Positions 24,575 to 24,706 of a stretch of DNA of 64,000 nt are shown here, in pieces. The notes under the pieces are model-generated. The model had not been told where the DNA came from. It saw only the letters and a list, made by a program, of their open reading frames with translations, and made no database searches. A program made the position numbers and the translations under genes. Numbering within the stretch: the first letter of the stretch is position 1; every line of letters begins with the position of its first letter. The stretch lies in the IMG/VR virus record IMGVR_UViG_638275541_000001; one strand, given 5' to 3'. This DNA comes from a virus (Duplodnaviria > Heunggongvirae > Uroviricota > Caudoviricetes).

Positions 24575-24706
24575 ACAGAAGACCGTTTACAGCAAAACTT
24601 AAACAATCTATTTCTCGGTAAAGAAAAGGAGAGGGTTCGATTCCTTCACTCGGCAGGTGTCGAGTTGGTGTAATGGTAGCACTTAAGATGATAAACAACG
24701 GTCTGG
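24575..24706 (+). ncRNA. YrlA-like RNA with circularly permuted tRNA-like domain
   Basis: 5' ACAGAAGACCGTTTACAGCAA; then T-arm GAGGG-TTCGATT-CCTTC, acceptor 3' strand ACTCGGC, 4 nt loop, acceptor 5' strand GTCGAGT, D-arm GTGT-AATGGTA-GCAC; 3' GGTCTGG pairs with 5' end. Confidence 0.5.

Follow-up and report, generated by a model that had tools for sequence, protein, structure and literature searches.

At the start of the tRNA cluster of Salmonella phage Felix O1 lies an element, E4, that is probably a noncoding, Y-type RNA. In a set of four such RNAs (perhaps five) encoded downstream of the gene for a Ro60-like protein, E4 would be the long member, the one that mimics a tRNA. The DNA analyzed was a single stretch of 64,000 nucleotides (IMG/VR record IMGVR_UViG_638275541_000001; here, the window), which is 100% identical to Felix O1 (record FO1a). 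E4 occupies 24573..24709 on the + strand and is located downstream of a 471-amino-acid (aa) open reading frame (ORF) at 22118-23533 (+). The secondary structure of its interior is that of a tRNA-like T-arm, closed acceptor stem, and D-arm. Ro60/Y RNA systems, tRNA mimicry by the bacterial Y RNA YrlA, phage-encoded Ro60, and the Ro60-like protein of Felixounavirus are already known; what is new is that the RNAs themselves are identified, that they carry a distinct module, which is conserved, and that the family to which they belong is broad and modular. The parts of E4, in order, are as follows.

24573-24576, + strand: outer stem, 5' strand, at the 5' end of E4, followed by an AGA loop at 24577-24579.
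24580-24587, + strand: inner terminal stem, 5' strand, AGACCGUU, followed by the conserved single-stranded segment UACAGCAA at 24588-24595.
24607..24630, + strand: V hairpin, at the position of the tRNA variable arm and abutting the T-stem (minimum free energy [MFE] fold).
24631..24647, + strand: T-arm, GAGGG-UUCGAUU-CCUUC (MFE fold and permuted scan).
24648..24665, + strand: closed acceptor-like hairpin, ACUCGGC-AGGU-GUCGAGU, of 7 bp with one G-U pair (3' strand, 24648-24654; loop AGGT, 24655-24658; 5' strand, 24659-24665).
24666..24682, + strand: UG linker (tRNA positions 8-9) and, from 24668, the D-arm, GUGU-AAUGGUA-GCAC.
24697-24704, + strand: inner stem, 3' strand, AACGGUCU, at the 3' end of E4.
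24705, + strand: bulged G, followed by the 3' strand of the outer stem, GUAA, at 24706-24709.

This architecture was recovered without constraints. The MFE fold of the + strand of E4 contained the terminal stem, the V hairpin, the T-arm, the closed acceptor-like hairpin, and the D-arm, with a z score of -2.15 compared to -1.09 for the minus strand. No spacer separates the T-stem from the 3' strand of the acceptor. A strict scan for a T-arm, a closed acceptor hairpin, and a D-arm gave 20 matches in the window plus 84 other loci (designated by L numbers) and none in five shuffled sets. In a re-ordering test, family cores were placed in tRNA order around the anticodon arm of the window's own tRNA-Gly and submitted to ARAGORN, which called tRNAs in nine of nine re-ordered cores, in none of the nine cores in native order, and in none of 270 scrambled controls. 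E4 itself, which has no anticodon arm, was called as a canonical tRNA gene by neither ARAGORN nor the Rfam tRNA model. These results bear out an earlier note, made from the sequence alone, that had described a circularly permuted tRNA-like domain without an anticodon arm; the T-arm, acceptor strands, loop, and D-arm that it listed are all in the sequence, within 3 nt of where it had placed them. The T-loop UUCGA, the D-loop GG, and the equivalents of A14, A21, and U8 were unchanged across 13 E4 variants, and by analogy with YrlA the domain may adopt an L-shaped three-dimensional fold. The linker reads UG in Felix O1 and UA in L013, L025, and L031; just before the T-stem, Felix O1 has A where most relatives have C.

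E4 was present (≥80% coverage) in at least 244 phage records of Felixounavirus, Suspvirus, and Mooglevirus, in which it is nearly always unannotated. Comparison of 13 distinct variants showed no change in the T-arm, D-arm, or terminal stems, apart from a single position of the D-loop, the equivalent of tRNA position 20, where all four bases were found. The acceptor-like stem occurs as three sequences in Felix-like phages (ACUCGGC/GUCGAGU, ACACG/CGUGU, and ACCCUUC/GAAGGGU), is 100% paired in all of them, and has three pairs that changed on both sides. The proposal that a tRNA rearrangement or tandem duplication left E4 as a functionless, decaying relic is therefore barely credible and largely refuted by conservation: the permuted form has been kept in three genera with invariant T- and D-arms and compensated changes in the acceptor-like stem, analogous elements have been kept in distant phages, and the arms of E4 were not copied from a resident tRNA. 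A recent copy of such a tRNA was rejected on the same grounds, the best match to the D-arm being only 11/15. The earlier note had likewise judged a decayed tRNA improbable, and an intact tRNA at the locus was not seen in relatives. What speaks for decay is that a tandem-tRNA origin is plausible and that T-arm recombination does happen in the cluster. In L009 (Salmonella phage SP116), around 8369-8700, E4 is cut short at the T-arm, its 5' half running on into the 3' end of tRNA-Lys(UUU). Lost in this fusion, which looks like T-arm/T-arm recombination, are E4's 3' half, the structured RNA downstream of E4, and tRNA-Lys's 5' part.

Conservation beyond the Felix-like phages was assessed with a family alignment of 20 sequences that resulted from a covariance model, R1, described below. 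In this alignment, 92.9% of cells were paired, compared to 67.1% after shuffling (0 of 500 shuffles reached the observed value) and 37 to 47% when partners were slid; the alignment was fitted to the model's structure and hence leans toward it, a point that counts against our reading, but the margin is large. Changes on both sides were seen in 34 of 40 pairs. The T, acceptor-like, and D helices were each 100% paired, with three, seven, and three covarying pairs, respectively, so that covariation in the acceptor-like stem extends to 7/7 pairs. The inner terminal stem was 95% paired, with seven of its eight pairs covarying. The V hairpin (83% of cells paired family-wide) has another sequence in L013/L014/HP1 yet still forms a hairpin, while the anticodon-like (AC-like) helix was paired in only 72% of cells, and no anticodon arm can form.

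Two annotations overlap E4. Several records carry a hypothetical protein from a 76-aa minus-strand ORF over the element (window 24573-24803); such a protein is implausible because close relatives differ by a 1-nt indel in the loop of the V hairpin. The 131-nt "tRNA-Thr_GGT" of Escherichia phage REP6 (L087 367-497) was rejected as an artefact that runs from the 3' part of the neighboring element E3 into the T-arm of E4.

The termini of E4 are common to three short elements that precede it in the cluster.

23866..23942, + strand: E1, short Y-like RNA, filling the spacer between tRNA-Glu and tRNA-Met.
24033..24100, + strand: E2, short Y-like RNA, between tRNA-Met and tRNA-Asn.
24486..24565, + strand: E3, short Y-like RNA, with outer stem GAGC/GCUC (GGAGC/GUUCC in Moogle-like phages).
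24573..24709, + strand: E4, long Y-like RNA with the permuted tRNA-like domain.

All four are laid out as an outer stem, an AGA/G internal loop, and an inner stem, with AGACC(R)NN and (U)UACAGCAA on the 5' side and NN(Y)GGUCU-G on the 3' side, and their common terminal module can be summarized as AG-stem, UUACAGCAA, then stem-CUG. In E1, for example, the outer stem GAC/GUC, the AGA/G loop, and the inner stem AGACCAA/UUGGUCU are accompanied by UUACAGCAA. The outer stems of E1 to E3 covary across phages, that of E2 being UAC/GUA in Felix O1 and UGC/GCA in phage mistaenkt.

We then asked how far this module extends, using 80 fetched loci that encode relatives of the 471-aa protein, 65 of them distant (only 39 to 47% identical). 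The exact Felix termini, AGAAGACC...GGTCTGG, were found in none of the distant loci, and the motif rule was generalized for this reason. A loose version, with a background of ~85 matches per strand, was replaced by a tight rule: a 7-nt stem strand, 3 nt, C[AC]GCAA, and the complementary strand within 190 nt, followed by G. In the 65 distant loci the tight rule gave 69 matches on the gene strand and one on the opposite strand, compared to two to five per strand in shuffles. Of the 69 matches, 58 lay within 1.5 kb of the protein gene, where module density was 15.5 times that farther off, and 43 of the 65 distant loci had at least one. Applied to the 64-kb window, the rule returned exactly E1 to E4, all on the + strand, in agreement with the earlier description of E4 as a fourth repeat element; in 46 kb of phage Bxz1 it returned no + match and one minus match. 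Positions on which the rule imposes nothing were also conserved among 97 distinct modules: on the 5' side, A (76/97) and G (93/97) at the stem base and U before CAGCAA (93/97); on the 3' side, C (92/97) and U (79/97) at the base, with an A-rich run ahead of the 3' strand. A minus-strand candidate at 21313-21384, which has no CAGCAA motif and lies within coding sequence, was rejected. E1 to E4 are thus local members of a far larger phage RNA family, which the earlier note had not recognized. Because the module is conserved and is tightly and strand-specifically linked to genes of ~40% identical proteins, its stem base and UUACAGCAA are the best candidate docking site for a Ro60-like ring.

The same data bear on a very different account of the four repeats, in which they are cis-acting elements of the tRNA operon (punctuation for processing or stability) or selfish repeats with inverted termini, rather than partners of the protein in trans, and E4 is one that captured tRNA pieces. 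E1 and E2 exactly occupy inter-tRNA spacers, the termini are inverted repeats, and mobile HNH endonuclease genes are found in the tRNA cluster, all of which speak for such an account. However, a tRNA lies within 6 kb at only 23 of the 65 distant loci, compared to 43 of 65 with the module within 1.5 kb of the protein gene, and the module is strictly confined to the gene strand (69 versus 1). The stem base and motif stay fixed across covarying stem sequences, and the nonpalindromic, single-stranded motif together with the G-U pairs (12 in stems) indicates that the module acts at the RNA level. We consider a cis-acting or selfish repeat very unlikely.

Between the conserved termini, the family is highly variable, with interiors of ~20 to 170 nt and short forms of ~50 to 70 nt. 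Long forms with permuted inserts (T-arm, acceptor-like stem, and D-arm) occurred in L019, L025, L031, L040, and L070. In others the T-arm is directly followed by the D-arm, with no acceptor hairpin (L019 4906-5011 and 4319-4415; L020 2215-2321), and two modules enclose tRNA-like bodies in normal order (L070 8329-8428 and L064 8192-8315). A unit of this normal-order type, with a D-arm, an anticodon arm (UUU), and a T-arm, matched the Rfam tRNA model over positions 5-66 of 71, so that the ends of the acceptor stem were not covered. The overall impression is of a modular platform carrying tRNA mimics. One lookalike of the permuted core, L048 9116-9174, was rejected as two adjacent tRNAs, Met and Ile. 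Distant short forms often hold two or three AGCAA repeats (UUACAGCAA...CAAGCAA...UAGCAA), as in L039 7412-7470, L027 5528-5586, and L037 5794-5844, a pattern that suggests several protein-binding sites in the short forms.

The gene upstream of the cluster encodes the putative partner of these RNAs.

22118..23533, + strand: gene for a 471-aa protein with a predicted Ro60 fold; Pfam DUF2828 and DUF7788; PHROG 850, "RNA-binding protein."

An AlphaFold2 model of this protein, built from 43 homologs, had a predicted local distance difference test score of 87.6 and a predicted template modeling score of 0.88. In a Foldseek search of the PDB, the top nine matches were all Ro60/TROVE structures over the full length (E values of 2.5e-8 to 7e-7; template modeling score up to 0.65; 10 to 16% identity), with 9KOP the best and 2I91, 9NFA, 1YVR, 2NVO, 9NF8, 1YVP, and 9NEP among the others; proteins with only a von Willebrand factor A (vWA) domain ranked after them. 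The predicted structure has the features that define Ro60, a ring of HEAT repeats and a vWA domain with a MIDAS (metal ion-dependent adhesion site), whose residues (D279-x-S281-x-S283, T349, and D381) were invariant in the 43 homologs. On the basis of this model, the protein is Ro60-like by fold and invisible to sequence methods. Previous work on Bas63, a Felixounavirus, described gp130 as a protein of Ro60-like structure, encoded directly upstream of a tRNA block, that counters the ppl defense (PMC11482910, PhageMaP preprint). We treat gp130 as an ortholog on the basis of that description (Felixounavirus, Ro60-like structure, and position directly upstream of the tRNA block; PMC11482910). The same study only guessed that some tRNA genes could be Y RNAs (PMC11482910). 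Our literature search found no paper tying Felix O1 to Ro60 or describing a function for DUF2828/DUF7788. The earlier note had called the neighboring gene Ro60-like; this holds for the fold and for the reported Bas63 ortholog but not for the sequence, which is not that of a TROVE protein.

Comparison with YrlA was informative in both directions. YrlA is laid out as an AC strand, a variable loop (VL), a T stem-loop, a closed acceptor-like stem-loop (AS), UA, a D stem-loop, and an AC strand (PMC4201824; bioRxiv 10.1101/312249). Its T and D stems are conserved, its AS, AC, and VL parts are variable, and a 5' GNCGAA(N0-1)G motif serves for Ro60 (PMC4201824; bioRxiv 10.1101/312249). E4 has the same order of modules, the same contrast between conserved T- and D-arms and variable AS, AC, and VL parts, and the same position beside a gene for a Ro60-fold protein, often near tRNAs. 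It differs from YrlA in carrying AG-stem, UUACAGCAA, and stem-CUG in place of GNCGAA(N0-1)G, in scoring below the 69-bit gathering threshold of the Rfam YrlA model (RF02553), in its UG rather than UA linker in Felix O1, in a full 7-bp acceptor-like stem with a loop that encodes N-CCA in some relatives, and in a DUF2828/DUF7788 partner that is not TROVE by sequence. The YrlA arrangement claimed in the earlier note thus stood (V, T, closed acceptor, 2-nt linker, and D, as published), with the caveat that E4 has no RF02553 match and no GNCGAA motif.

The search with Rfam models that the earlier note had proposed gave a split result, with no Y_RNA or YrlA match for E4 itself but with RF02553 matches for three distant relatives (E values of 1e-5 to 4e-4): L031 at 41.4 bits (E = 1e-5), L019 at 38.2 bits (8e-5), and L025 at 35.8 bits (4e-4). 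The genuine YrlA upstream of the Bxz1 Ro60 gene, searched in the same sensitive mode as a control, scored 32.5 bits (E = 2.3e-4), so that these relatives scored as well as the control or above it; since a genuine phage YrlA reaches only this score, the 69-bit gathering threshold is strict for phage members. The score of the relatives stems from their T-AS-UA-D core. In the reverse direction, we built a model (R1) from Felix-like E4 copies only; a MAFFT alignment of the heterogeneous distant cores, in which acceptor strands were misplaced, was abandoned in favor of the Felix-like alignment. R1 gave full-length matches in L070 (57.5 bits, E = 8e-11), L019 (52.3 and 38.2 bits), L031 (35.9 bits), and L025 (27.4 bits, E = 0.002). 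It also matched E1 (34 bits, E = 4.7e-5) and E2 (46.7 bits, E = 3.7e-8) through the terminal module alone, and it scored only 12.6 bits on the Bxz1 YrlA. Intermediates therefore connect E4 to YrlA, with a common design of the effector domain and, in E4, a different, putative protein-binding module. The general definition of a Y RNA also fits E4: its ends are paired in a covarying stem with a conserved, putatively protein-binding site, and its interior is variable.

Several results weigh against reading E4 as a Y RNA of a Ro60-like particle. Neither the Rfam Y_RNA models nor RF02553 matched E4, even at E ≤ 10, the only match being a fragment of a transfer-messenger RNA (tmRNA) T-loop; this absence is meaningful because the same mode detects the Bxz1 YrlA. 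E1 to E4 lack the canonical Ro60-binding motif, GNCGAA(N0-1)G, and have UUACAGCAA in the equivalent position, and the 5' Ro60-binding segment of RF02553 (ggCgaAUG) does not align to the CAGCAA module in the relatives. On the protein side, Pfam TROVE (PF05731) and vWA_Ro60 (PF25045) gave no match to the 471-aa protein, only DUF2828 and DUF7788 doing so, while the control, the phage Ro60 Bxz1 gp220, matched both. Sequence and profile searches of the 471-aa protein against the PDB were not significant, NCBIfam returned nothing, and hhalign of Bxz1 gp220 against the protein family aligned only 40 columns, at the MIDAS motif of the vWA domain. Bas63 gp130 alone, on a plasmid or inserted in T7, restores plaquing on ppl hosts (PMC11482910), and because it rescues T7 by itself, the RNAs are not required for the anti-ppl activity. 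Last, intact E4 is missing from two isolates, SP116 (L009) and FG1m, the latter of which lacks most of the element, and E4 must therefore be dispensable for propagation.

The loop of the acceptor-like hairpin offers a further clue to function and origin. In 5 of 11 independent permuted lineages, a discriminator base and CCA stand in the loop right after the acceptor 3' strand, followed by a short spacer and the 5' strand (binomial P = 4e-7). The lineages are L013/L014/HP1, two in L019, L040, and L070, with permuted elements of this type at the following positions.

L013 8452-8588: N-CCA permuted element.
L082 2991-3126: N-CCA permuted element.
L019 5378-5509 and 5752-5881: N-CCA permuted elements.
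L040 8154-8289: N-CCA permuted element.
L070 8439-8532: N-CCA permuted element.

The loop of Felix O1, AGGU (AGAU or AUAU in close relatives), contains no CCA. The tRNA genes of these phages encode CCA. A dimeric or tandem-tRNA origin has been proposed for YrlA (bioRxiv 10.1101/312249), and the YrlA of Mycobacterium smegmatis is a substrate of RNase P that is then given CCA (PMC4201824). By analogy, the N-CCA could be either a fossil of tandem, CCA-encoding tRNA genes or an acceptor end that RNase P cleavage would expose; its presence, with a spacer, within the loop is sequence-level support for an origin of YrlA-type RNAs from tandem tRNA genes. If the second option were correct, E4 might be processed into a split tRNA-like molecule, cut in the loop by RNase P just 5' of the acceptor 5' strand, with the upstream half trimmed to a CCA end or supplied with one, to give a nicked, two-piece mimic whose free acceptor end could be charged or could serve as bait for enzymes or toxins that attack acceptor ends. 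Such a form would be compatible with a Y-like ribonucleoprotein (RNP). It gains from the full 7-bp acceptor stem of E4, the feature that makes the M. smegmatis YrlA an RNase P substrate (PMC4201824), and from the N-CCA loops of the five lineages, and it suffers from the lack of CCA in the Felix O1 loop and from the fact that an encoded CCA could equally be the tandem-tRNA fossil (bioRxiv 10.1101/312249). On balance, we regard processing of E4 into a split molecule as unlikely.

The reading of E4 as a Y-like RNA suggests how the system might operate. Three sigma-70-like promoter sites are relevant.

22049..22078, + strand: sigma-70-like promoter upstream of the Ro60-like gene, TTGACA-18-TAAAGT, 10/12 (consensus match only).
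23552..23580, + strand: sigma-70-like promoter upstream of the tRNA/Y-like RNA cluster, TTGACA-17-TAATAT, 10/12 (consensus match only).
23643..23672, + strand: another sigma-70-like promoter ahead of the cluster, TTGACA-18-TAAAGT, extended by TG.

Promoter-like sites were no more numerous here than in shuffles, and no terminator-like site was found on the + strand from 23643 to 25200. From this layout, transcription starting at the 23552 and 23643 promoters would cover the RNAs together with the tRNA cluster, and the RNAs would be freed as RNase P and the enzymes that process tRNA 3' ends excise the flanking tRNAs. Because E1 and E2 exactly fill the spacers between tRNAs, cotranscription with the tRNAs and release by tRNA processing are probable. 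The 5' and 3' ends of each RNA would then pair, and the stem base (A-G...C-U-G) and UUACAGCAA may dock on the Ro60-like ring. The interior of E4 would form a tRNA elbow, built from the T-arm with its UUCGA loop, the D-arm with its GG loop, a linker of the U8 type, and a loop-closed acceptor stem. As proposed for YrlA, a tRNA-binding factor might be drawn in or held back by this elbow, with the RNA serving as a gate or tether for the Ro60-like ring. A role in phage-host conflict over RNA seems likely, in which the RNAs would probably adjust what the protein does, or add to it, without being needed against ppl.

Other known systems resemble this one in part. In Thermus phage phiLo, phiRo60 binds phage-encoded Y-like RNAs and host PNPase (PMC12135203). 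As in Felix O1, Y-like RNAs of a phage (Yrl1 and Yrl2) are encoded beside a Ro60-fold gene, and the phiRo60 structure, 9KOP, is the best match to our model. In contrast, Yrl1 and Yrl2 were found by the canonical CGAA motif and lie upstream of their gene, whereas the Felix O1 RNAs lie downstream, and binding and the PNPase complex have been shown for phiLo, whereas the Felix O1 RNAs are candidates predicted from sequence. The phiLo report does not use the term YrlA and mentions tRNA only twice (PMC12135203), and we noticed no description of a tRNA-like domain for its RNAs. Yrn1 of Deinococcus radiodurans and metazoan Y RNAs likewise combine a terminal Ro60-binding stem with a variable effector module, and the normal-order bodies in L070 and L064 recall the different T/D orientation of Yrn1; the Ro-binding helix of those RNAs, GGUCCGA with a bulged C, is absent here, as is any Rfam Y_RNA match. 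In circularly permuted tRNA genes (Cyanidioschyzon merolae) and in two-piece tmRNA from permuted ssrA, the 3' half is encoded upstream of the 5' half. Some relatives of E4 have an acceptor 3' strand, N-CCA, and a short spacer, as those precursors do, but E4 has no anticodon arm to restore and no bulge-helix-bulge-like motif. The same termini occur on E1 to E3 and on ~60-nt elements without any tRNA parts and are therefore a functional module, not a splicing or ligation signal. E4 is thus neither a complete tRNA nor bounded by removable processing termini, the marks of a circularly permuted tRNA gene.

A broader reading is possible, and we offer it tentatively: DUF2828/DUF7788 proteins and "CAGCAA-stem" RNAs may constitute a widespread, phage-specific RNP resembling Ro60/Y RNA, whose RNAs capture tRNA bodies and lure, tether, or block host factors. 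Such an RNP would have gone unrecognized because neither partner matches curated models. If this is correct, a single RNA platform has repeatedly taken up tRNA bodies, be they permuted, reduced to T plus D, or in normal order; where such a body encodes N-CCA, cutting by RNase P would leave it with a free acceptor end. The host factors affected would be those acting on tRNAs, or on RNAs of other kinds, in antiphage defense. Animals, bacteria, and a few phages are known to have Ro60/Y RNA particles. The same design is now found in tractable, well-studied phages (Felix O1 and Bas63) whose Ro60-like protein has a measurable anti-ppl phenotype, and since candidate RNAs, a conserved putative binding module, and ~100 family variants are now named, what the tRNA-like domain of YrlA does can be tested directly. 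An annotation gap is also apparent, as in hundreds of phage genomes these RNAs either carry no annotation or are listed as hypothetical ORFs or pseudo-tRNAs.

Directly 3' of E4 lies another structured RNA, which we conjecture to be a fifth partner RNA of the system.

24708..24851, + strand: candidate fifth partner RNA, ~145 nt, with a closing stem of ~24 bp (MFE, -48.3 kcal/mol; z = -6.26).

Nine phage variants of this RNA had 32 consensus pairs, seven of them compensatory, and an Rfam search with it gave no match. It contains a mini-hairpin, CAGAC-C-UUAAGCAA-GUCUG, that reads CAAACC-CUUUAGCAA-GGUUUG in SUSP/Moogle-like phages and echoes the UUACAGCAA motif.

The remainder of the tRNA cluster, which contains 25 tRNAs according to ARAGORN and 24 according to Rfam, showed several other features. 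Two ORFs lie inside it.

25021-25515, + strand: ORF matching PHROG HNH endonuclease families.
26003-26395, + strand: ORF with Cys/His-rich motifs in common with 25021-25515; no Pfam match.

The presence of these ORFs differs among related phages, and both are probably mobile. The spacer between tRNA-Asn and tRNA-Tyr (24195-24257, +) contains a T-arm-like hairpin, AAGG-UGCAAGU-CCUU, and no complete tRNA. The segment is possibly a tRNA fragment; in phage Sl26 (L001), tRNA-Asn and tRNA-Tyr are separated by just 9 nt, which identifies it as an insertion/deletion difference. A GC-rich hairpin, GAGAGGGCUAUUUAGCCCCUCCC, is located at 24431-24455 (+), right after tRNA-Asp and ahead of E3. Finally, on a contig that also carries the Ro60-like protein and Y-like RNAs, L061 contains a full-length tmRNA at 12792-13235 (+; Rfam, 81.5 bits).

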